From an uncultured Verrucomicrobiae bacterium (GTDB taxonomy: Bacteria > Verrucomicrobiota > Verrucomicrobiia > Limisphaerales > JAFGQR01), in assembly GCA_963788655.1 (NCBI GenBank), contig CAWBHS010000059.1, forward strand, positions 32,001-96,000: a stretch of 64,000 bases of DNA, given 5' to 3'. The notes below the pieces were generated by a model, which saw nothing but the letters and a program-made list of their open reading frames with translations, did not search any database and was not told the DNA's origin. Both the position numbers and the translations under genes were made by a program. Below, piece after piece: positions 6,283-36,869 of this stretch. Positions within the stretch are counted from its first letter, which is position 1. Each line of letters opens with the position of its first letter.

Positions 6283-6435
6283 TGCTCCTGGATGAAGGGA
6301 AGGTTATGCCGGAGACCGCTTCCGGTTCAATATAAAAACCGGCAACGGGATTAGCGCCAGTTGGCGTCGCGTTAACAAGCCAACAACCGGCCCTGGTTTC
6401 CAACCGGTGCTCAAGCCATTCGAATGCTCCAGACT

Positions 6436-6880
6436 GGTTGGCGAGGCGTCAACCACTGCGCCCGGGGCGGGCGCGCTCCCTACTGGATTGTTGCTTTGTC
6501 CTCGACGAAATCGGGAGCAAGCTCCGGCACCGTTCACGCATTCGTCTCTGCGATTGGCGGCGGCTGACAGCGGCGCTTGCGGATGCCGCCAGCATGGAGT
6601 GCGTGCGGGGCTCCGCCGCTTTCGAACCTCACGTGCGAGCCGAGACCAACCGCCGCGTCCGATAACCTTGTCCCGTCGCTCTGGATGCGAAAGCGCCGGC
6701 AAGCCGGACGCACTCCAAACGCTGGCGCGATCTTGGCAAGGCCCCGAACTTCGCGAAGCGCTTGGAGTGCGTGGGGCTTGCTCCCGCTTTCGTTGTTGGC
6801 GAGGCGTCCTAAGTTCTGGACGGATCCGGAGTCGGCCAACGCCCAGCGGGCTAAAAGTCCGCGCTACCCCAAACCGCGAC
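6436..6880. repeat. Cluster of REP-like palindromic elements
   Basis: ggttggcgaggcgtcaacc...gcgcccggggcgggcgcgctccc at 6436-6480 (recurs in 11.8-12.6 kb and at 15791). aaagcgccggcaagccggacgcactccaaacgct at 6690, with an inverted copy at ~6758-6790 (recurs at 9630-9770 and 38995-39140). Confidence 0.8.
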
Positions 6881-7098: not shown

Positions 7099-9585
7099 AT
7101 GAAACATCTCGTTCTCTGCTTCGCCGGACTGTTCAGCCTGGGCTTGCTCGCGTTTCCTTTGTTGGCTGCGGACGAAATCCCGGCCCATCGCGCCAAGCAG
7201 ATTTATGACGCCGCGCCGGCGAAAGCGCGCGTCGCTCCCCAACAAGCACGCCGGGTGCTCATCTGGATCACGCCGGTCCACCTGATGCCCAAAGACCCGC
7301 ACAAGGGCTATTGCATTCCTTACGGCACCTGCGCGATGGAGACGTTGGGCAAGAAGACCGGCGCCTTCGAACCGGTGGTCAGCGACGACCTCGCCATGTT
7401 CCTGCCGGAAACCATCCGCCAGTTCGACGCGATGGTGATGAACAACAGCTCCGGCTCCTGGATCACGCCCACTGATGACGACCTGGCCAAAGAGAGCTTT
7501 CGCCAACAGGGCGCCGACCAGGCCGCAGTGGAACAAGTGCTGCGGAAGAGCCTGTTGGATTATGTGCGGAACGGCGGCGGCATTGTGGCCTACCACTATG
7601 CCATCGGGGCCAACCGGCAATGGCCTGAGTTTCACGAACTGCTGGGCGGCACGTTCATCGGGCATCCGTGGAATGAGGAAGTGGGCGTCACCGTCGAAGA
7701 ACCGGACCATCCGCTGGTGGCCGCATTCGGGGGAAAAGATTTTCGGCTGGCCGACGAAATTTTCCATTTTGGCGATCCGTACAATCGCGCAAGGCAACGC
7801 GTGCTCCTGTCGCTTGATCCGGAGCGCACCAACATGGGCGTGAAATGGATCGATCGCACGGACAACGATTTCGCGTTGGCCTGGGTAAAGTCGTACGGCA
7901 AAGGCCGCGTTTTCTACACGTCGTTTGGCCATCGGACGGAACTCTATTGGAACCCGATGATTCTCCAGTTCTATCTCGACGCCATTCAATTTGCGACCGG
8001 CGACCTGCCCGCGCCCACGGCGCCGCGCCCGGGCCGTCCGATCAAGCGCGCACCGGGGCCGACGCCGCCGGAAATTCGGGCCGCGAAAATGAAGGCGAAA
8101 AACATCACCGAACCAACCACCGAGCAGCGGCAACTAATCGAAGCCGCCGCGCCCGCCACTGCGCCAGCGCGCCCGGCCAAGCCGCGAAGGGTTTTGGTGT
8201 GGGGCCACCGTTGGACGCACGAGCCCAATCCATTTGCCGAAGCCGCCTTGACCATCCTGGGCCAGAAAACCGGCGCCTTCGAAACCACGATCAGCGACGA
8301 TCCCCGGCTGTTGCTGGGCGACCGGTTGCCGCGATTTGATGCGCTGGTGATGAACAACCTGCACGAACGCGATCCGTGGTTGCCGGAGAATTTCACCACG
8401 CTTCCGACCGAACAACAAACGGCGGCGACGCAGTTCGATGCAGCGGTAAAGCAGAGCATTCTGGACTACGCGCGCAGCGGCAAAGGCATTGTGGGCCTGC
8501 ACGCCGCCATCGCCGCCTTGCCGGACTGGCCCGAATACGGCGAGATGATGGGTGCCTATTATGGTGGGCATCTGTTCGCGGAGGTGCCGATCAAACTCGA
8601 TGATCCGGCGCATCCGGTGAATGCCGGTTTCCGCGGTCAACCGTGGCGCATCAAGGACGAGATTTACATTCCCCGCGCGCCGTATTCGCGCCAGAACCTG
8701 CGCGTCTTGCAGAGTCTGGATTTAAGTCGAATGGCTGATCCGGGCAAGCGCGCGGACCAAGATTATCCGGTATCTTGGGTTCGGCAATTCGGCCAGGGGC
8801 GGGTCTTTTACACCACGCTTGGGCACGCCACCGAAACCTACGCGAATCCGCTGTTCCTCGAGCACCTGTTGGCCGGAATCCAATTCGCCATCGGTGACTT
8901 GCCGGGCGAAACGGCACCGTTGTCCGCCGGCAACCCGGACGCCGAACCCGGCTTCGTCCGCATCTTCAATGGTAAAGATTTAGGCGGATGGGACGGCGAC
9001 CGGGCGATATGGTCAGTTCGTAACGGAGCGATTACCGGTCAAACCACCGCCGAAGCGCGCGTCCGGGAAAACAACTTCCTCATTTGGCAGGGCGGGCAAC
9101 CGGCGGACTTTGAGTTGCGTCTCAAATTCAAGCTGGTTGGCGGCAATTCCGGCATTTACTTCCACTCGGAGAAACGCGCGCCGGGCGCCCAAGGCGAAGC
9201 GCTGGTGGGGCCGCAGGCTGACTTCTCCGCCGACCACCGTTGGACCGGCGTGCTCATGGAATACACCAAGCGCGATATCCTCGCCGAACGCGGCCAGCGG
9301 GTGGAGATTGACGCGCATGGCAAGAAACACATCATCGGCTCGGTGGGCGATCCGGCGGAATTGCTGAAGGCGGTCAAGGATGAAGCTTGGAATGATTACA
9401 CCGTTATCGTCCGCCAGGGATTGGTGAAGCTGCAAATCAACGGCGTCACCATGTGCGAAGTGACGGACAACGATCCACGCCGCACGCCCGCCGGTTACCT
9501 GGCGTTGCAAGTTCACGTCGGTCCGCCAATGACCGTTCAGTTCAAGGACATTCGGATCAAGCTGTTCTCAGAAAGTCGGCGCTGA
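7099..9585 (+). CDS. Secreted protein with two ThuA-like (glutamine amidotransferase fold) domains plus DUF1080 (3-keto-disaccharide hydrolase-like) domain
   Basis: Signal peptide MKHLVLCFAGLFSLGLLAFPLLA; repeated YGKGRVFYTSFGH / FGQGRVFYTTLGH; C-terminal IFNGKDLGGWDG...NSGI...WNDY...LQVH. Confidence 0.85.
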   Translation: MKHLVLCFAGLFSLGLLAFPLLAADEIPAHRAKQIYDAAPAKARVAPQQARRVLIWITPVHLMPKDPHKGYCIPYGTCAMETLGKKTGAFEPVVSDDLAMFLPETIRQFDAMVMNNSSGSWITPTDDDLAKESFRQQGADQAAVEQVLRKSLLDYVRNGGGIVAYHYAIGANRQWPEFHELLGGTFIGHPWNEEVGVTVEEPDHPLVAAFGGKDFRLADEIFHFGDPYNRARQRVLLSLDPERTNMGVKWIDRTDNDFALAWVKSYGKGRVFYTSFGHRTELYWNPMILQFYLDAIQFATGDLPAPTAPRPGRPIKRAPGPTPPEIRAAKMKAKNITEPTTEQRQLIEAAAPATAPARPAKPRRVLVWGHRWTHEPNPFAEAALTILGQKTGAFETTISDDPRLLLGDRLPRFDALVMNNLHERDPWLPENFTTLPTEQQTAATQFDAAVKQSILDYARSGKGIVGLHAAIAALPDWPEYGEMMGAYYGGHLFAEVPIKLDDPAHPVNAGFRGQPWRIKDEIYIPRAPYSRQNLRVLQSLDLSRMADPGKRADQDYPVSWVRQFGQGRVFYTTLGHATETYANPLFLEHLLAGIQFAIGDLPGETAPLSAGNPDAEPGFVRIFNGKDLGGWDGDRAIWSVRNGAITGQTTAEARVRENNFLIWQGGQPADFELRLKFKLVGGNSGIYFHSEKRAPGAQGEALVGPQADFSADHRWTGVLMEYTKRDILAERGQRVEIDAHGKKHIIGSVGDPAELLKAVKDEAWNDYTVIVRQGLVKLQINGVTMCEVTDNDPRRTPAGYLALQVHVGPPMTVQFKDIRIKLFSESRR

Positions 9586-9599
9586 TACTGGATGCCGGA

Positions 9600-9870
9600 T
9601 TCCGGATACCAAGATCCACCGCATGTCGCGCCAGCATTGGGAGTGCGTGGAGCTTGCTCCCGCTTTCGCATGGGGTGGGACGTGCAAAGACCGGAGCAGC
9701 GCACTCAAGAGTCTGATCGTTGTTTCCTTTCGAAAGCGCCGGCAAGCCGGTCGCACTCCAAACGCTGGCGCGACTGGCGGCAGGTTTGTCTTAACGTTAG
9801 GCGCTTGGCTTTGTTCAAACCCTCCGTTCCAAACTCCCGGCAAGATGCCGGCAGCACGCTGGCGCGACTG
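9600..9870. repeat. REP-like inverted pair plus ccggcaagatgccggcagcac element
   Basis: Same families as at 6690-6790 and 11648. Confidence 0.75.
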
Positions 9871-9909
9871 ACTGCCAGCCGTTCCCAAACCAGGCCAATC
9901 CCCGGCTGA

Positions 9910-10396
9910 TCATCCCCGGTTCAAGGTCCAGATCGCCGCGTTGAGGGCAGCGGCGAAGGTCACCCAACCGAGGTACGGCGCCATCAGCCAAGCGGCCAGA
10001 CCATCGATGCGTTCGAAGGCCCTGGTGGTGGCAACGATTGCCAACCATAGACACACCAATTCCGCAAACGCCCAGCCCGGCTGATGAAGCCCGAAGAACA
10101 GGAATGTCCACCCGGCATTCAACAACAATTGCAGGAGGAAGAGCCCGAGCGGACGCCACGCCGGCAGAAAGCCTTTGCGTCTCCAAACCCGCCAGGCGGC
10201 GATGGCCATCATCACGTAGAGGGCGGTCCACACGGGCGCAAAAATCCAGTTCGGTGGATTCCACGCCGGCTTGCGCAGTTGCGCGTACCCACTCCCCCGG
10301 CGGGAACAACGCGCCTCCCAGCGAGGCGGCGAAACAAAGCGCCAACCAGACCATCAGGCCAACGACATTCCGGGTGCGCCGCTTCGATTTACTCAC
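9910..10396 (-). CDS. tspO: TspO/MBR tryptophan-rich sensory protein (frameshift near 10290)
   Basis: PGEW..LRKPAWNPPNWIFAPVWTALY, QLLLNAGWTFLFFG and PYLGWVTFAAALN. Confidence 0.9.
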
Positions 10397-10578
10397 AATA
10401 GAACTTGGGAGGTCACGAGTTCACCATCGAACGCAGCCCGTCTGCTGCCGGCATCTGGGAGCGAGATTCAAAAGTCCTGAAGTTGGTAGCCACCGACGTA
10501 AGGAGGTGGATCTTTCAGGTGTTTGACGCGGGCATCTCCGCCTCTTCACGGCGGCGGCGACACTCACTCAACGAGCCC

Positions 10579-11463
10579 TCAGACATCACATATCCGCATC
10601 ATCTTATCCAAAGTCTCCAGCGGTTCGCGCGTGGGTGTGTATTCGTGCGCGAGGTAGCCTTGATAGCCCAGGTCCACGATGGCCGTGCAAATCCCCACGT
10701 AGTTCAGTTCCTGGGTGTCATCGAACTCATGGCGTCCGGGATTGCCCGCCGTGTGGAAGTGGCCAATGTATTGGATGTGGTTGCGGATGGTCCGGATGAC
10801 GTCGCCTTCCATGATCTGCATGTGATAAATGTCATACAACAGTTTCACCCGCGGCGAATTGACCCGCTTGCAGACTTCGACGCCCCAGGCCGTGGAATCG
10901 CACATGTAACCCGGATGATTGACTTTGCTGTTCAACAATTCCATGCAGATCGTCACCCCCAGGTCTTCCGCCTGCTGCTTGATGTTGTTTAAAAAGAGCA
11001 CGCTATTGTCCAGGCCCGCTTCGTCGGTAAGTCCCTTCCGGTCACCCGCCAACACAATCACATTGGGCGCGCCGGCATCCGCGGCGGCTTTCAGGAAATC
11101 CCGCATCTTGCGGTCAATGGACGCGTGGTTGTTCTGGTCGTTGATGCCCTGTTTGATGCCGCTGCCGCCGGGAACCATCGTCGGCACCAGGCCATACTTT
11201 TTGAGCACCGGAAACGTGTCCGGCCCTACCAGGTCAATTCCCTGGGCGCCCCATCGCGCCGCCTCGCGACACGTTCCCTCCAGATCCAGTTTGACCCCCC
11301 GAAAGACACCGCGACAGACGGCCTGCTTGAGCCGGCCTTTGCGGGTGACTTTTTCGGAAGCGGCCAGTCCGGTTGCAGGGCGGAGGGCGGCCAGGGCGCT
11401 GACGCCCGCAACGGTGGTTAAGAAATCCCGGCGATGAATTCGTGAAATTGTACTTGTTGCCAT
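10579..11463 (-). CDS. Tat-exported hydroxypyruvate isomerase-like TIM barrel protein
   Basis: Tat motif RRDFL; ELLNSKVNHPGY, LLYDIYHMQIMEGD and HFHTAGNPGRHE. Confidence 0.9.
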   Translation of the reverse strand: MATSTISRIHRRDFLTTVAGVSALAALRPATGLAASEKVTRKGRLKQAVCRGVFRGVKLDLEGTCREAARWGAQGIDLVGPDTFPVLKKYGLVPTMVPGGSGIKQGINDQNNHASIDRKMRDFLKAAADAGAPNVIVLAGDRKGLTDEAGLDNSVLFLNNIKQQAEDLGVTICMELLNSKVNHPGYMCDSTAWGVEVCKRVNSPRVKLLYDIYHMQIMEGDVIRTIRNHIQYIGHFHTAGNPGRHEFDDTQELNYVGICTAIVDLGYQGYLAHEYTPTREPLETLDKMMRICDV

Positions 11464-11647
11464 GTCTGGAGAATAGTGAGGCGAATTCCCCGGCGGCAAG
11501 TCTGCAAAATGGGTATTTGTCGAGGCATTGACAATGCGTCAGGATGCTTTGGCACGAAAGCCAACAATCTTCGTTGATGCGAGCGATTACCGACGACCGA
11601 AAATCGAAATATGGCCGCGTCCTCTCGTTCAAGACCCACGTTCCAAA

Positions 11648-12637
11648 CTGCCGGCAAGATGCCGGCAGCACATTGCGCAACGTGCTGCTGGCGTCCCGCC
11701 GGCAGAACCGAACACGAACTGTGGGTTAAAATTCCCGCCGCACCAGCAAGGCGTTGCAAAAAATGGAACCCCCCTCCCTATTCGATGAGTGGTTGGCGAG
11801 GCGCCAACCACAGCGCCCGGGGCGGGCGCGCTCCCCGAGGGGAATTGAAATGCGCTGGTTTGGTTCGGCAGCCCTTCCTGCAATCGATCTGCCGGCAAGA
11901 TGCCGGCAACACGCTGCGCAACGTGCTGCTGGCGTCCCGCCGGCAGAACCGAACACGAACTGTGGGTTAAATTTCCCGCAGCACCAGCAACGCGTTGCAA
12001 AAAATGGAACCCCCCTCCCTATTCGATGAGTGGTTGGCGAGGCGCCAACCACGGCGCCCGGGGCGGGCGCGCTCCCCGAGGGGAATTGAAATGCGCTGGT
12101 TTGGTTCGGCAGCCCTTCCTGCAATCGATCTGCCGGCAAGATGCCGGCAACACGCTGGCGCAACGTGCTGCTGGCGTCCCGCCGGCAGAACCGAACACGA
12201 ACTGTGGGTTAAAATTCCCGCAGCACCAGCAACGCGTTGCAAAAATGGAACCTCTCTCTCCTTTCCGATGAGTGGTTGGCGAGGCGCCAGCCACGGCGCC
12301 CGGGGCGGGCGCGCTCCCCGAGGGGAATTGAAATGCGCTGGTTTGGTTCGGTAGCCCTTCCTGCAATCGATCTGCCGGCAAGATGCCGGCAGCACGCTGC
12401 GCAACGTGCTGCTGGCGTCCCGCCGGCAGAACCGAACACGAACTGTGGGTTAAAATTCCCACAGCACCAGCAACGTGTTGCAAAAAATGGAATCCCCTCC
12501 TTATTCGTTGAGTGGTTGGCGAGGCGCCAGCCACAGCGCCCGGGGCGGGCGCGCTCCCCGAGGGGAATTGAAATGCGCTGGTTTGGTTCGGTAGCCCTTC
12601 CTGCATTCGATCTGCCGGCAAGATGCCGGCAGCACGC
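11648..12637. repeat. Tandem array of ~241-bp composite palindromic units (4 full copies + partial)
   Basis: Unit start ctgccggcaagatgccggca occurs at 11648, 11889, 12130, 12372 and 12612; units are nearly identical. Confidence 0.95.
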
Positions 12638-23301: not shown

Positions 23302-23439
23302 GCCGGACGCAATACGTCGAACTTACGCATAGGACTGGCCCTTGCCAATTTTATTCCCGAACGAAATGGATTAATCTTAGATAACCAACCGCAGCTTTTC
23401 GACCAACCTTCAGTAACCAAAGTGTAGTATGGGTATGGA

Positions 23440-24138
23440 TCCAAAAATTTGGCAATGTCGGCATGAATCATCCAATTGGTCGCCCCGCTTCAGACACTGG
23501 TCCCGCAGCCGACTCAATGCCTCGTGCGCGCTATGCCCGCGCCGGAAGCCATGCGAGAGCCCGTAGAACTGGGGTTCGTAGATCGCTTCCAGCAGGCTCG
23601 CCACCGCCCGTTGCACGATTTTGTCTTCCAGCACCAGGATCGCCGGCGCGCGCTGGCTGCCGTCACTCTTGGGAATCATCACCGGCCGGGCCGGTTGCGC
23701 CCGGTACTTCCGGGTCTGCAACCGTTGCCCCAGGTCGGCGATGCTACAACTACCTTCGTCCGTCCCGGTCGGTTCGCTTGCGGCTCCCTGCCGGTACCTT
23801 GGGTTGAGGCGCTCTGTTTCGTGTCCCGCCCGGCTCGCGCCGGGTTCAGCTCGTTGACCGTCCGCATCCAGCGGCCCACGCCAAGGTGGTGATGCTGCCG
23901 GTCACCCTGCTTCCGGCGGTTCTCCCCAAGGAGACGGGAGGTTCTCCCGAGTTCCCGGATTACCCCTTTAAGCATACGCCCCGATCTCAGACCCCGGATG
24001 GGTCCCGCCCCGCTGGCCTTAACGCGGACAGGACGGCTGCCTTCCTCTCGCTGCACGAGTCGGCTTTCGTTCCGGTTGCCCGGACTTCTTCTCTGACCAC
24101 CACGATACATTTTTCGGGATTCAATTTCGCCGACGCAC
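23440..24138 (-). mobile_element. Truncated group II intron remnant (5' RNA part plus RT N-terminal fragment)
   Basis: ORF 23410-23721 (YRAQPARPVMIPKSDGSQR...EDKIVQRAV..LLEAIYEP.F...SHGFRRGHSAHEAL) matches RT1-RT2. There is a GTGCG at 24138 and structured upstream sequence, but no YADD or domain V. Confidence 0.8.
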
Positions 24139-26483: not shown

Positions 26484-26666
26484 GGTACCGTAGGGTATCC
26501 CGGTTTTCCCGCCTCCGTGGGCCAGGTCTGCGAACGACCAGTCGCCTGGACGACTTTGAGCTTTATCGACCGGCTCACGGGGCGGGCTTGCACCCTCTAA
26601 CGACTCCTCAGAGGGCGTTCACTGTTGCAGTGAGAACTCTCCTATATTGCCGTCGCTGGGTCAAGC
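26484..26666 (+). ncRNA. Putative IS110 bridge RNA (target- and donor-binding loops)
   Basis: Two long stems with internal loops. Loop sequences gcgaacga/ttgagctt match the attC target flanks, and cctcagag/ctatattg match the IS ends exactly (8/8 each). Confidence 0.75.
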
Positions 26667-26694
26667 CTGCGGGAAAACCACACCACCGAAAACC

Positions 26695-28032
26695 ATGAAT
26701 GATTCGACGATGAAGCACGATTATCCGTATGACCTGGTCATCGGCCTGGACCGCTCCGACGCCACGGCCGACCTGCACACCATTGACGTGCATACCAACG
26801 GCCGCACCAACCAAACCATCGCGACCAGCCCCGAAGCGCTCCATGACTGGCTGGCCCAATTGCGCCAGCAACATCCCCAAGGCCGGGTGGCGATCTGCCT
26901 GGAACAACCTGCCGCCAATCTGCTGGCCTTCCTGGAAAGCTATGCCTGGATCACCCTCTACGCCATCAACCCGATGACGTTGAAAAACTTCCGGGAAGCC
27001 TTCGTCACCAGTCGCGCCAAGGACGACACTCAGGATGCCTATTATTTAGCTGAACTACTCCTGACTCATCCCGACAAGCTGACCGTGTGGACGCCCGAGG
27101 ACAGCGCCACCCGCCACCTGCAACAAGCGGTCACGCACCGCCGCGCGGTGGTGGACGAACGCACCGAGTTGACCAACCGGCTGCAAGCCCTCTTAAAGGC
27201 TTATTTTCCGCAGGCGTTGACCCTTTGTGGCCAGGAACTGTGGCGGCCCATGGCCACCGATTTGCTCCTAAAATGGCCCACCTTGGCGGCGATCAAAAAA
27301 GTCAAACCAGCGACCCTCAAACAATTCTACCGCCAGCACAATTCCCACAGCGCTTCCCTGCTGGAGCAGCGGCTCCAATGCATTAGCCAGGCGATTCCGC
27401 TCACGGAGGAAACCGCCCTGGTGGAAACCTACGCCCTGCGCGTGCAATTGATCGGTCGCCAACTCCAATTGGTGGTCGCGGCCATTGCCACGTACGACCA
27501 GCAGATCCAGGCGCGGTTTATCGCCCACCCCGATTACGCGATCTTCAAGAACTTGCCCGGGGCGGGACCGGTGCTGGCGCCGCGGTTGTTGGCCACGATG
27601 GGCAGCGTGCGCGAGCGCTTTCCCACCGCCGTCAGCTTGCAGTGCTACAGCGGGATTGCGCCGGTGACCAAACAGAGCGGCAACACGCGGCACGTGCATC
27701 GGCGCTACCTCTGTCCGAAGTTTTGCCGGCAGAGCTTTCATGAGTTTGCGGGCAGCTCGATCCTGTTCAGTCGTTGGGCGGCGGCGTATTATTTGCAGCA
27801 GCGGGAAGCGGGCGCGAACCATCACACGGCGGTGCGGGCGCTGGCCTACAAATGGCAGCGGATCATCTGGCGGTGCTGGCAGCGCCAGGAGGTCTATGAG
27901 GAGGCGCGTTATGCCGAAGCCCTGCGGCGCCACGGCAGCCCGATCGTGGGATTGTTCGATCAGATTGAGTTAGGCAAAAATCCCTATACCAGCCGCAAGA
28001 AAAAGGCCGCCCAGCGGGCGAAGAAAAAATGA
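26695..28032 (+). CDS. IS110-family DEDD recombinase/transposase
   Basis: IGLD, CLEQ and KDDTQDA (RuvC-like DEDD); C-terminal LPGAGPVLA and YSGIAPVTKQSG, RALAYKW. Confidence 0.95.
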   Translation: MNDSTMKHDYPYDLVIGLDRSDATADLHTIDVHTNGRTNQTIATSPEALHDWLAQLRQQHPQGRVAICLEQPAANLLAFLESYAWITLYAINPMTLKNFREAFVTSRAKDDTQDAYYLAELLLTHPDKLTVWTPEDSATRHLQQAVTHRRAVVDERTELTNRLQALLKAYFPQALTLCGQELWRPMATDLLLKWPTLAAIKKVKPATLKQFYRQHNSHSASLLEQRLQCISQAIPLTEETALVETYALRVQLIGRQLQLVVAAIATYDQQIQARFIAHPDYAIFKNLPGAGPVLAPRLLATMGSVRERFPTAVSLQCYSGIAPVTKQSGNTRHVHRRYLCPKFCRQSFHEFAGSSILFSRWAAAYYLQQREAGANHHTAVRALAYKWQRIIWRCWQRQEVYEEARYAEALRRHGSPIVGLFDQIELGKNPYTSRKKKAAQRAKKK

Positions 28033-28408: not shown

Positions 28409-28591
28409 GATCCCGGCCCCGTGGGGTGGCATGGAATGGAAACATGCCTTGATGGCTCGAAACCTAATGTCATCCCGAAAATGGATATGCCGGACCGAGT
28501 GGGGGCGTGAATTTGTTATTGCGTTCAAAGAACCGGGTCCAATTGCGCTACTCTGCATTGAGGATCGGCTGTGGCCAGTTAAGCCGTATTC

Positions 28592-28687
28592 ACCGAACGC
28601 CAAGAGGACCGATGAGCGGCACCCCGAAAACGTTCGAACTGTAAACTGACGCGCTTGCCGCTCATTCGGTCGCTCGATTGGTTAGCT
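28592..28687 (-). other. attC site
   Basis: accgaac..gaggaccgatgagcggca...tgccgctcattcggtcgctc..gttagct; closely related to the attC at 32753. Confidence 0.85.
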
Positions 28688-28948
28688 GATCGCATTATAA
28701 AAGGCATAAATCATCCACAAGGTCAACATCCCAGCTATAGCACCTGCAATCTTGTCCGCACCAGACTTCCGGAATAAAGCCACCGCCGACATGGCCAAGC
28801 ATAGAAGCAAACTGATCGAACCCACCGCCCAGACGTAATGCGGAATCGGCCGACCATTTGCAGGAGTCAAAGCGGGAAGAAATACTCCAGCAAAAAGTGC
28901 CATAATGATCGCGCTGATTCCTCTCCAAGATGGGATGTAGGCCGCCAT
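28682..28948 (-). CDS. Small 3-TM membrane protein (gene cassette)
   Basis: 88-aa hydrophobic ORF whose stop lies in the attC R''. Confidence 0.7.
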   Translation of the reverse strand: MAAYIPSWRGISAIIMALFAGVFLPALTPANGRPIPHYVWAVGSISLLLCLAMSAVALFRKSGADKIAGAIAGMLTLWMIYAFYNAIS

Positions 28949-28958
28949 AATTCTTTAG

Positions 28959-29775
28959 ACCGGGTAGGCGTAGGCGGTCACCCGCCCACGCCCCCCTAAG
29001 AACCGGACTTGAAAGTTTCCCTTCATCACGGCTCAAGCCTCTCCAAGGCCACCCCGGATGCGGGGGACCCGCGTAACCAGGAGGCCGGTGACACCCAAAG
29101 GCGTCATGGACCTTCCCAATCCCACTTGGCAATACCGGTCGGCGGCCATATCGCGCTCGGCTCCTTTGGGCCGCAGCACCGAGAGGCACCAAGCGACGGG
29201 CGTCGCTCGTCCTATGCTTCTCTCGCTTGAAGGGGTTCCGCTGATTTTCTTGCCAGGAGACACCAGATCGACGTGGGCATATCCGGTCCATTACCGACCG
29301 GCCTTGGCTTGTTCGATCCTCTTCATGCTGCCTCCCCTGGGCCTGCCTTGCGGTCGGCTTGCCTGGATACTCTCCAGGCGGGAACTGGCAGCTTTTCCAT
29401 GTTCCGCATTCTCCACAGGATGGGTTAGGTCCACTCTCTACACCGGCGGTGCGCCATTCGCGTCGGGCTACGTTAGACAGCCCGAACCTGACCGCTGGCC
29501 TTGTTTTGGCCGGAGCCTTAAAACAGCCTCGTTTGGCTCGTTCCTCTGACGATGCTTGCAAGTGTTCACATGGGTTGACCCTACCATCCGATTCTAGCGC
29601 CGCACCCGGATTGAGGCTCCCAGGCTGGCTACATTGTCGGGAAGGCTTCACACCCTGGACAGTAGCCTTGCGGCCGCCCGTCCAACGCATGCTTCCCTGG
29701 AATACCTGCCGCGAAAGGCAGGACTGAGTCAGGTTGCCCATGCTCAGCAGTGATGAATGCGACTTCATGTCACAA
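28959..29775 (-). mobile_element. ORF-less group II intron inserted in attC core
   Basis: 5' ttgtgacatgaagtcgca; domain V gagccgtgatgaagggaaactttcaagtccggttc; domain VI ending ctacccggt; EBS1 CTAACG in a stem-loop at 29463-29485; no RT ORF. Confidence 0.88.
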
Positions 29776-29899
29776 CTAACGCCGAGATGACCGACAGCTT
29801 TGGGAGCGCCAGCCTCGACTGGAATTATCGGTTTCAAGTTTCATGGTCGATGTCCGCTGCGAGGCGGGTGGGCTGTTCGGTCAATCGACATGGTTGGAC
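29774..29899 (-). other. attC site (R' core interrupted by intron)
   Basis: ctaac..gatgaccgacagc...gctgttcggtcaatc..gttggac. Confidence 0.8.
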
Positions 29900-30402
29900 A
29901 TTTCATTTGTCCAGTCACTCTACCAAGAATGTCCTCACGTGGTAAAGCGCCCCAGTAGCGGCTGTCCAGTGCGTTTGTCGTATTGTCGCCCAGCAGGAAA
30001 TATGAGCCTGCCGGCACCCGATACGGATACGTAATGGAAGGCGAATGACGGGGTGCGATGTAGTGAATGCCAGATAAACGCGCAGGCGGCTCTTGCCGTT
30101 GTCCATCTATGTAAATGGCGTCGTCACGAAATTCCAGTTGCTCGTTTGGCAGGGCGATGACCCGCATTACCCAGAAATCCTGAGCGACTTTTCCCGGCGC
30201 AGGTGTGGGATGAAACACGATGACATCCCAGCGGCTGGGCGCAGCCCTCTGGTAGGCTGCCATGTCAGCTACGACGACTTCATTTGGCTGGATCGTCGGT
30301 GACATGGAGGTACTGCTCTGCCGAAAGCTCGCGCTGCGAGTCCGAACATCAGACGAGAGCCGATAGCAACAGCAGAATCGATGGAAAATAGATGCGTGTC
30401 AT
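29841..30402 (-). CDS. Signal peptidase I (S26)-like protein (gene cassette, frameshifted ends)
   Basis: SMSPTI, RWDVIVF, VMRVIALP and YFLLGDNTTNALDSRYWG. Confidence 0.85.
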
Positions 30403-33941: not shown

Positions 33942-35027
33942 ATGACCATGTCAAATCAAAATGACGATAATGGGGAGAAATTTTCAGCCGCTTCCGGGGA
34001 TTCCCAGCGCCACCGTCCTACGGGCAAAGCGGCCCATGGCACGCCCCCGCCTTGGGTGCGCCGGCTGTTTGCCGCCCGGGGCCTGGTGCTGCAGGAGCGC
34101 CAGCTTTATTGGTATGGCGTTCATTGGGAACGGTAACGGAGGTATTTGGAATGGGTGGGGCGATTTCTGGCCTGGCGTGGGGCAGGGTCGCTGGCCGAAG
34201 TGGAGACGCTGGATATTCGGCGTTACCTGGAGACCCTGGCGGTGGAGCGAAGGGTGAGCGCCAGCACGCAAAACCAAGCCTTCAGCGCGCTGCTCTATTT
34301 TTTCGAACAAGGGTTGCACCGGCCCTTGGGGGACTTGAAAGGGACGCTACGGGCCGCCCCCAACCGGCGGCTGTTTGTGGTGCTCAGCCGGGAGGAAGTC
34401 ACGCGTTTGCTGGCGGCGCTGGCGGGGACTTTTAACCTGATGGCGCGACTGCTCTACGGTACGGGCATGCGACTGATGGAATGCTGCCGGCTGCGCGTCA
34501 AAGACATCGACTTCGAACGCGGGCAAATCGTGATCCACGAGGGCAAGGGAAACAAAGACCGGGTGGTGATGTTGCCACAGAAGCTGGCCAGTCCGCTCGA
34601 ACAACACTTGGCGCGGGTCAAGTTGTTGTTTGATGCGGATCGGCGGGCGGGCCTGCCTGGGGTTTATCTGCCGGGCGCGCTGGAGGCGAAATACCCCAAC
34701 GCGGGCAAGGAATGGATCTGGTACTGGGTGTTTCCCGCCAAAAACCTCAGTGTGGATCCGCGGAGCCAAGTGCGTCGCCGTCATCATGTCCATGAGAATG
34801 GATTGCAAAAGGCCGTTCAGAGTGCGAAACGCCTGGCAGGAATCCCCAAGCGGATTGGCTGTCATACCTTAAGGCATTGTTTTGCCACCCATTTGCTGGA
34901 GGCGGGAGCCGATATCCGAACCGTGCAAGAGTTGCTGGGGCATGAGAGCGTGGAAACCACGATGATTTATTTGCACCTGATGCAGAAACCGGGGTACGGC
35001 GTGCGCAGCCCGTTGGATCAGGAGTAG
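33942..35027 (+). CDS. intI: Integron integrase IntI-A (in-frame TAA at 34134-34136; catalytic part 34146-35027 intact)
   Basis: [18 protein letters not shown], the IntI-specific patch [23 protein letters not shown]...[14 protein letters not shown] and LLGH..VETTMIY. Confidence 0.92.
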
Positions 35028-35904
35028 CAAGAGCGCGGAATGGTGCGCCGGGCTTACGGAATGGCAACCGTTTCGGTTTATCCGGCGACGATGGGACGGC
35101 CAATTCCGAACGCCAATGGCCACCATTCACTTCCCCGATTAAGCCGAGCGGTTGGCTGCCGCCGACTTCCCCGAATGCCATAAATGCAGTTTCGCCATTA
35201 CCCTCCGCTGGCACCTCAACTTCTGCCGCCGGGGCCGGGGCGAGGTCACTCATGACTCGGCCCGCGACTTCATCGCCTGGGCCCAGGCCCACAAACAGCC
35301 CGAACCCTGGCAACTGGAAAGCTGGCGCGAGGCCATTCGCTGGTTTTTCCGCGCCGCCAAGGCCGCTCAGGATCGAGCCAGTTCGACGGCGTCGGCCCCC
35401 TCACCCCAGCCCTCTCCCCCGGTGGGGGCGAGGGAGCCGGAGGCTTCAGAAGCCACCCCAACTTCGGCGGTGCCCGCCTGGAAAACGGCCTTTCTGACCG
35501 TCCTCCGGCGCCGGCACTATTCGTATCGGACCGAGCAGAGTTACCTGGTTTGGCTGGAACGCTTTGCGCGGTTTTGCCAGACCGAAGACCTGGAACATCG
35601 GGGGACCGAGGACATCAAAGCGTTTCTGGATGCCCTGGCGCTGGACCAGCGATTGAGTGCCAGCAGTCAACGACAGGCGTTGAACGCAGTGGTGTTTTTG
35701 TTGCGCGAGGTCTTCGGCCAGGAACTGGGAGATTTTTCTGATTACCGTCGCTCGCGCTTGCGGCCGCGCGCCCGGACCTGGCTCACCCGCAACGAAATGG
35801 AAAAGCTGCTCGAGCAATTGGAGGGCGAAGGGGATTGGGCCTTGATGACGCGTGTGGCCTTCGGCGGGGGCTTGCGGCTGACGGAGTTGCTGCGCTTGCG
35901 GGTT

Positions 35905-36188
35905 CACCCCGTGAGATAACCGATCATGTCAACCTATTGCTACGTGTATGTTCTGCGTTCAGCCAAGGACGGTCAGTTTTACGTCGGCCTGACCAGAGAC
36001 CTACGAGCGCGGCTTCAAGCGCACAACCACGGACAGGTTCCCTCCACCAAAAGGCGCGCCCCGCTGGAACTGGTGTATTGGGAGGGTTGCCTCAACGAAG
36101 GCGATGCGGCCCAGCGCGAGAAATACCTGAAGAGCGCGTGGGGGAAGCGCTACATCAAGAATCGTTTGAAACAATATCTCACGGGGTA
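35905..36188 (+). mobile_element. 284-bp inverted-repeat-bounded insertion carrying a GIY-YIG gene
   Basis: Perfect 13-bp IR accccgtgagata (35906-18) / tatctcacggggt (36175-87); removal restores cgg gtt aag gac = RVKD. Confidence 0.9.
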
Positions 36189-36189
36189 A
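35926..36189 (+). CDS. Stand-alone GIY-YIG nuclease (UPF0213/SLX1-like)
   Basis: [26 protein letters not shown]...STK...PLELVYWE...A..RE..LK. Confidence 0.92.
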
Positions 36190-36869
36190 AGGACGTGGAT
36201 TTGGAGCAGGAAATCACCACCGTGCGCGCGGGCAAAGGCGACCGGGATCGACTGGTGCCGCTGGCCCATGTAACGGTGGACGCGTTGCGGACGCACTTGG
36301 CGGTCATTCGTCAGCTTTACGAGGCGGACCGCCGCAAACAGGTGGCCGGGGTGTGGTTGCCCGAGAGCTTGGCCCGCAAATATCCCAATGCCGGCAAGGA
36401 ATGGCCGTGGTTCTGGCTCTGGCCCGATGACCATTTGAGCACCGATCCGCGCAGTGGACTGAAGCGGCGGCATCACCTCTCGGACCGGCTGTACCAGATG
36501 CGCATCAAGGAGGCAGCGCAGCAGGCGGGATTGAACAAGCGGGTGACGCCGCACGTGCTGCGGCATTCCTTTGCCTCCCAATTGCTGGACCGGGGCACCG
36601 ACATTCGAACGCTGCAAGAGTTGCTCGGGCACAAGAGCGTGGAAACCACGATGATTTACACCCACCCGATGCGCAAGCCGGGCCTGGGCGTGCGCAGCCC
36701 GCTGGATCAGGAGGAAGAGGGTTGAGGGTTGTTGGTTGAGCGTTGAGGGACCAGCCCGCCGATAAAGTGACAGCTTGAAACTCGACCGAGCGTTCGTTCG
36801 GACCGGACCATGCGCGCTTCGCCAGCGACGGTTCGATGGAAACTTCTGCCTGTGGGGCGATGGCGTGCG

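Follow-up and report, generated by a model that had tools for sequence, protein, structure and literature searches.

Group II introns found in integrons are usually described as members of the group IIC-attC class, lying antisense to the cassettes and blocking transcription of the array. In a 64-kb stretch of DNA from an uncultured Verrucomicrobiae bacterium (the window, by which the whole stretch analysed is meant), a group II intron lies within an attC site in the same sense as the cassettes. The locus thus raises the question of what class of intron this is, how it read its site, and whether its place in the array reflects more than one past event or a coincidence.

An intron within the R' core of a cassette array

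The surrounding region is an integron array, as judged by its integrase gene, the cassettes that diverge from it and the agreement between successive attC ends. To the left of the integrase genes, the minus strand bears small ORFs in alternation with imperfect palindromes of the attC type, seven attC sites in all. The features needed here are the following.

34146..35027, plus strand: integron integrase gene, divergent from the cassettes (Pfam; TIGR02249, 391.4 bits against a cutoff of 265)
33479-33387, 31543-31436, 31048-30923, 30497-30405, 29899-29776, 28687-28592 and 28408-28300, minus strand: attC sites (scan, folds, reading)
29776..29899, minus strand: attC of the upstream, signal-peptidase-like cassette, from R'' GTCCAAC to R' GTTAG (scan, folds)
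28959..29775, minus strand: ORF-less group II intron, 817 nt (Rfam, alignment with nine homologous introns, exon pairings, cassette rule)
28682..28948, minus strand: 88-aa ORF of the cassette that has the intron at its 5' end, with no family match (Pfam, NCBIfam)
28592..28687, minus strand: attC of the intron-bearing cassette, from R'' AGCTAAC to R' GTTCGGT (read from the sequence)

In a cassette array, each cassette begins with the last six letters of the preceding R', which are hence the complement of its own R''. Read from the sequence, this rule holds at five of five consecutive junctions, at one of them only with the intron removed. Taking the intron out of the sequence joins the exons as GTTAG|CT, the complement of the R'' (AGCTAAC, 28687-28681) of the next attC, as the preliminary description had proposed; the last two nucleotides of the interrupted R' (CT) lie past the intron at 28958-28957, and the R'' of the same attC complements the tail TTGGAC of the preceding R'. 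Since the extra unpaired bases fall on the R''/L'' half, the minus strand is the attC top strand, and the intron therefore occupies the top strand in sense orientation. The earlier claim of a sense insertion is borne out by the layout as a whole, the integrase being on the plus strand, opposite to the cassette ORFs, the attC top strands and the intron, which share the minus strand.

The insertion falls 4 nt past the G|TT integrase crossover, splitting the R' core, and 10 nt before the ATG (28948) of the 88-aa ORF, a spacing that had also been given before; because it lies downstream of the crossover, the intron belongs to the 88-aa cassette. Among the sites of the array, GTTAG is present only in the intron-bearing attC, so that a second homing site is absent nearby. 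No promoter-like sites were detected by a promoter scan of 28500-30000, and GC skew over the window was of mixed sign, from which the replication strand could not be inferred.

Several neighbouring features may be recorded alongside. The cassette upstream of the intron (29841-30305, minus strand) encodes a protein of 154 aa that resembles signal peptidase I (Peptidase_S26, 97.7 bits; TIGR02227, 93.8 bits), and the 3' end of its ORF overlaps its own attC. Directly upstream of the intact integrase gene, a second integron-integrase gene (35152-36725, plus strand) is broken into halves in two overlapping frames (TIGR02249, 112 and 224 bits) and is probably a pseudogene. An IS110-family transposase gene (26647-28032, plus strand; NF033542, 163 bits) lies where the array ends, on the side away from the integrase.

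The intron itself runs on the minus strand from 29775 to 28959, beginning 5'-UUGUGAC and ending CCCGGU-3'. Two Rfam families matched above their gathering thresholds, namely group-II-D1D4-7 at 29723-29598 (minus strand; 63.2 bits, cutoff 34) and the domain V/VI family RF00029 at 29036-28959 (minus strand; 49.6 bits, cutoff 40), and the Rfam search of the 64-kb window returned no further intron-family match and no second copy. A tblastn search with the reverse transcriptases (RTs) of five related introns found no RT on the intron's own strand, the sole match lying on the opposite strand (29269-29394, E 9.5), and a 380-aa frame that spans the intron had no Pfam match. An 817-nt intron with domains V and VI and no RT, as first described, is thus upheld. 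Its boundaries are fixed by the cassette rule together with the EBS1-IBS1 pairing (6/6), the candidate EBS2-IBS2 pairing (5/5) and the EBS3 column (9/9) set out below; of the interval 28959..29780 given previously, the end at 28959 stands, and the end at 29780 is to be moved, as it takes in the final 5 nt of the 5' exon.

A IIB1-like ribozyme and its reading of the site

Membership of group II is plain from the domain V/VI consensus, the AGC triad, the GAAA loop and the bulged A of domain VI, all of which are present. The parts of the ribozyme and the exon segments with which it pairs, all on the minus strand, are listed below.

29776..29781: IBS1 (CGUUAG), the 6 nt with which the 5' exon ends and which include the GTT of the attC R' core; perfect complement of EBS1
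29463..29485: domain I hairpin whose loop holds EBS1 (CUAACG, 29476-29471); stem with compensatory changes among 10 introns
29783..29787: candidate IBS2 (UCUCG), exon positions -12 to -8, in the attC L' arm; pairs with CGAGG
29527..29531: candidate EBS2, the CGAGG of the 29539-29513 hairpin loop, 3 nt past the helix 5' branch
28958: IBS3 (C), the first nucleotide of the 3' exon; complement of EBS3
29438: EBS3 (G), column 634 of the ten-intron alignment (alignment A1)
29035..29265: domain IV remnant of 231 nt with no ORF, the former start-codon region reading AUAGGAC
29000..29034: domain V of 35 nt; AGC triad, GAAA loop, and in the lower helix a single additional U on the 5' side
28962..28996: domain VI; its bulged A, at 28965 and 7 nt from the 3' end, is taken as the branch site by its position only

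The guides account for the site. The preliminary description had seen a hairpin at 29463-29485 displaying the complement of the exon end CGTTAG, and the six pairs between that end and the loop are all formed; the stem of this hairpin corresponds to alignment columns 391-397 with 601-607. Column 634 is complementary to exon position +1 in nine of the nine introns tested, the runner-up among the 1041 columns reaching only 6/9. The candidate EBS2 forms five of five pairs with IBS2, one of them G-U, and lends modest support, as the estimated chance of such a match is about 0.09; its position agrees with the description of IIB1 introns in the portion of PMC8643678 consulted. In sum, EBS1 reads cGTTAG of the R' core, the candidate EBS2 reads part of the L' arm and EBS3 reads the C that follows the cut, so that the targeting of the top-strand R' core by base pairing, as had been suggested, holds for the site at 29776. 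The additional Watson-Crick pair EBS2a-IBS2a could not be formed, A standing opposite A in our own reading against the account in PMC8643678; in that account, as far as the cited part goes, the pair carries no statistical signal among organellar ORF-less introns.

These features place the intron with the IIB1 (chloroplast-like) introns. Its layout is that of IIB1, with a 6-bp EBS1, a 5-bp candidate EBS2 located 3 nt past the helix and an EBS3 that pairs with exon position +1, and the group-II-D1D4-7 family that it matches is matched also by two RT-bearing plasmid introns (L001, 125.5 bits; L002, 67.8 bits). Further evidence comes from the proteins of its relatives: the RTs of introns L008 and L064a scored 543 and 568 bits against PDB 6ME0, compared with 109-144 bits against IIA (LtrA) and IIC RTs. 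According to the sections of the two papers drawn upon, 6ME0 is the Th.e.I3 IIB1 intron of T. elongatus (PMC8643678), and EcI5, the closest relative of the T. elongatus intron, is a CL/IIB1 intron (PMC2882425). EcI5 and other bacterial CL1/IIB1 introns are described in PMC8643678, in the part available, as having the same 6-bp EBS1, 5-bp EBS2 at 3 nt past the helix and EBS3 in domain I, and the 5' region of the D1D4-7 type that they share with the window intron is seen in L001 and L002. They differ from the intron in the window by their GUGCG...AY termini, by an RT that usually has an endonuclease domain, by their double-stranded DNA targets and by the EBS2a-IBS2a pair. The IIB-like character first proposed is accordingly confirmed by the AGC triad, the 6-bp EBS1, the candidate EBS2, the covarying EBS3 and the Rfam family shared with RT-bearing introns.

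That the intron might instead be an ordinary group IIC-attC intron which has lost its ORF is suggested by its location in an integron attC site, where S.ma.I2 and its relatives are likewise found. As described in the consulted parts of PMC7923331 and PMC3001079, however, IIC-attC introns insert antisense into the bottom strand at R'' (TTGT/T), recognise it with a 3-4 bp EBS1 and the attC hairpin without an EBS2, carry a CGC triad and encode class C RTs. The present intron is in the top strand, in sense, at R' and not R'', with an AGC triad, a 6-bp EBS1, an EBS2-type pairing and no RT; its domains I-III extend over about 510 nt and match the Rfam D1D4-7 family, and the RTs of its relatives score far higher against the IIB1 RT than against IIC RTs. 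With triad, strand, EBS1 length and Rfam family all different, the IIC-attC identity is ruled out for all practical purposes.

The ribozyme has kept most of its fold. The RNAalifold consensus for domains I-III of the ten introns comprises 129 pairs, 96 of them with compensatory changes; in the window intron, 105 are formed, 4 are broken and 20 are absent by deletion, that is, 105 of the 109 alignable pairs are intact, and the RT-bearing relatives have 3-10 broken pairs. Degradation beyond folding, which the preliminary description had allowed for, is therefore not what was found. The 20 absent pairs are due to the deletion of two peripheral hairpins, of domain I and domain III respectively. 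The basal stems of domain IV are common to three other ORF-less introns (34 consensus pairs, 21 compensatory). Domain V departs from the 34 nt expected of IIB1 introns, being 35 nt long against 34 nt in eight of eight relatives.

Its termini, UUGUG...GU, likewise depart from the general GUGYG...AY. The first and the penultimate nucleotides of group II introns interact with each other, and the ORF-less TeI3 introns have canonical termini. A first U is combined with a ...GY end in six of six introns (that of the window, L008, L015, L041, the short copy of L064 and L073), and a first G or A with an ...AY end in six of six (L001, L002, three copies at L064 and one at L004). As the two positions covary in all twelve, the unusual termini look compensated. 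Judged from the sequence, present activity is nevertheless doubtful on account of the 35-nt domain V, the two deleted hairpins and the A-A opposition at EBS2a-IBS2a, with the U...GU termini as a further reservation.

Relatives, precedents and a probable recurrence at attC sites

The intron was called non-autonomous from the start, and this agrees with its lack of an RT and with the search of the 64-kb window, in which no full-length RT was found. A 103-aa ORF at 23410-23721 (minus strand) holds a partial RT domain (RVT_1, 25.1 bits, below the cutoff of 29.6) with 30% identity to residues 103-211 of the RT of intron L073 (E 1.7e-4). This ORF may be a remnant of an intron-encoded protein; no ribozyme was detected beside it.

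Relatives were sought among plasmids and genome contigs. A blastn search with the whole intron against 72,556 plasmids returned 343 records that matched domains V/VI only (at most 11% of the query), none of the 343 covering 80% or more of the intron, so that the plasmid set holds no close relative. Genome contigs were scanned with a pattern for 5' ends that begin with U (U1), which makes the sample a pattern-biased one; it gave at least 117 matches, most of the 117 listed being chance matches (about 550 such matches are estimated for the whole collection), and nhmmer confirmed 25 of those listed as U1 introns (E < 1e-8). Among the matches listed, GTT occurs in the last 7 exon nucleotides in 11 of the 25 confirmed introns and in 7 of the 92 others (Fisher p 6.5e-5), counts that are not fully independent because some loci share a genome (L020 with L034, L004 with L064).

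At other loci, attC sites were called by a crude, looser scan with many false positives and by reading by eye, rather than by IntegronFinder. A strict test, which demanded that AAC and GTT be paired in the minimum-energy fold, was dropped because it missed obvious sites. Among the matches listed, the scan placed attC-like hairpins flush with the intron at six junctions in four loci (two at L004, two at L064, one each at L015 and L008), and reading by eye added L041 and L069; at L013, L020, L034, L089, L094 and L098 no convincing attC-like hairpin was seen. The N-terminal half of an integron integrase lies on the opposite strand at L015 (TIGR02249, 208 bits, below the cutoff of 265; profile positions 1-143 of 315), in the same layout as in the window. 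Taken together, these results give statistical support to a recurrent association of related introns with attC sites, within a pattern-biased sample and with a home-made attC test.

At least three relatives are ORF-less as well: L015 (894 nt, from a Blastocatellia MAG), L041 (860 nt, from an Anaerolineales MAG) and the short intron of L064 (825 nt, from a Desulfatiglandales MAG). Each aligns with the window intron end to end at 55-67% identity, and each has AAC in its EBS1 loop in register with the GTT of its own exon. A single deletion event shared by the ORF-less copies was considered and dropped; the motifs that they share in domain IV are the paired strands of its basal stems and so mark no common breakpoint. 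The search for RT-encoding relatives that had been called for was also productive (L001, L002, L008, L064a and L004), and RT-bearing copies that begin with G (G1) at L004 and L064 sit at attC R' as well. These G1 copies have GCGAAC as their EBS1, which complements GTTCGC at the L004 copy exactly; the two L064 sites read GTTGGC.

Two of these loci have oddities of their own. At L064 (1550-6825, plus strand, and 9154-11718), two RT-bearing group II introns and the 825-nt ORF-less U1 intron directly adjoin one another, head to tail. The first of the three stands at an attC R' (GTTGGC|), and the locus has a fourth copy, at a different attC, whose first nucleotide is A (AUGCGAC). At L008, the EBS1 hairpin region of a full-length U1 intron is interrupted by about 190 nt (approximately 6395-6590, plus strand; columns 400-592 of alignment A1), an insertion that is absent from the nine other aligned introns, and the EBS1-IBS1 match of this intron is only 4/6.

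The association does not follow descent in any simple manner. Mapped on a tree built from the first 300 nt, the label for a GTT exon requires 8 changes, a number as low being reached in 190 of 500 shuffles; on this sequence tree the GTT-exon introns do not form one clade, and no clean attC-targeting lineage emerges. The rows nearest to the window intron among the matches listed (L047, L087 and L113, nearest by 5' sequence, with 68% identity at most) do not follow GTT, so that the outcome named beforehand as a refutation, relatives inserted away from attC sites, is seen in part. L047, the closest on the tree among the matches listed, carries an RT ORF, yet domain V is missing within 6 kb, and its hairpin at the EBS1 position holds no complement of the last six exon nucleotides.

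The same arrangement was published in 2021, and UHB.I2, a IIB1/CL1 intron reported by Sonbol and Siam from a cassette array on a soda-lake metagenome contig (PMC7923331), is the closest precedent. In the sections of that paper used here, UHB.I2 is likewise in cassette orientation, directly after an attC, with a IIB-type structure and the termini 5'-UUGCG...GU-3', as against UUGUG...GU in the window. It carries an En-minus RT ORF, which the window intron does not; its authors, in the same sections, report no conserved exon sequence and do not tie EBS1 to the R' core, the comparison being made here by description only. No description of ORF-less or IIB introns that read the attC R' core was found in the literature beyond the available part of PMC7923331.

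A parallel for the loss of the ORF is offered by the ORF-less TeI3 introns of Thermosynechococcus elongatus (Mohr et al. 2010, PMC2882425). As presented in the portion of that paper cited, these are IIB1 introns that lost their ORF by deletion in domain IV, have kept good EBS/IBS pairings, as has the window intron, and use the RT of related introns for both splicing and mobility. They have spread within one genome at non-integron sites, whereas the ORF-less relatives of the window type occur in several phyla and at attC sites, with no driver RT seen.

Competing readings and their bearing on integrons

The reading that we favour, and regard as probable, is that a non-autonomous IIB1-type intron reverse-spliced into the top, coding-sense strand of the attC, its site being read by the guides. 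Being in sense orientation, it would be transcribed with the array and, if still active, could splice out to leave GGCGUUAG|CUAAAGAAUUAUG; its movement would rely on trans-mobilisation, and excision of the 88-aa cassette by the integrase would carry the intron along.

Whether any of this still happens is the point of a less favourable reading, which we consider doubtful but well worth keeping in view, by which the intron is a dead relic of one past retrohoming event and now serves as an 817-nt structured spacer, possibly with polar consequences for the 88-aa ORF. The irregular domain V, the two lost hairpins, the lack of a second copy in the window, the lack of a promoter-like site in 28500-30000 and the want of any RT but the fragment of about 100 aa would all fit such a relic. 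Against a relic, all three exon pairings are intact (that of EBS2 being a candidate), the four broken pairs are no more than RT-bearing relatives have, and the pair between U1 and the penultimate G, the AGC triad, the GAAA loop with a receptor-like motif and the bulged A of domain VI have been retained. A different objection concerns the site rather than the ribozyme: IIB introns retarget through changes in EBS1 and EBS2, and the attC location could be coincidental, with no preference for integrons. The scatter of GTT-exon introns on the tree, with the nearest relatives elsewhere, the 14 of 25 listed U1 introns that are not at GTT and the offset of 0 to 3 nt between GTT and the insertion point speak for coincidence. 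Yet attC sites make up a minute share of any genome, and at least six junctions in four loci adjoin an attC-like hairpin, including those of RT-bearing G1 copies whose EBS1 exactly complements the L004 site; the enrichment of GTT among the listed exons and the report of UHB.I2 in the same arrangement (PMC7923331, in the part cited) point the same way, and a mere coincidence appears improbable.

Under the favoured reading of guided insertion into the top strand, the window intron would belong to a loose set of related introns whose termini are U...G-pyrimidine; several of these introns lack an ORF, and the set is met with repeatedly at attC R' in distant phyla. A broader proposal, which is tentative and rather unlikely to hold in full, would see in this set a second association of introns with integrons, distinct from IIC-attC, in which IIB1 introns with non-canonical but compensated U...G-pyrimidine termini read the GTT of R' by EBS1, insert into the top strand just past the crossover, ride with the downstream cassette and splice out, and in which ORF-less derivatives of about 820-890 nt with a conserved stub of domain IV may persist and spread across phyla as passengers of cassettes.

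An intron of the IIB type that lies in sense and recognises the attC core through base pairing could be spliced from the polycistronic transcript of the array. As the integrase crossover is left intact and the intron would move with its cassette, the relationship between the two mobile systems would be of a different kind. Four alignable ORF-less copies are at hand from distant phyla, three of them beside attC sites among the matches listed, and these small natural ribozymes lend themselves to tests of trans-mobilisation and of the targeting of single-stranded hairpins.
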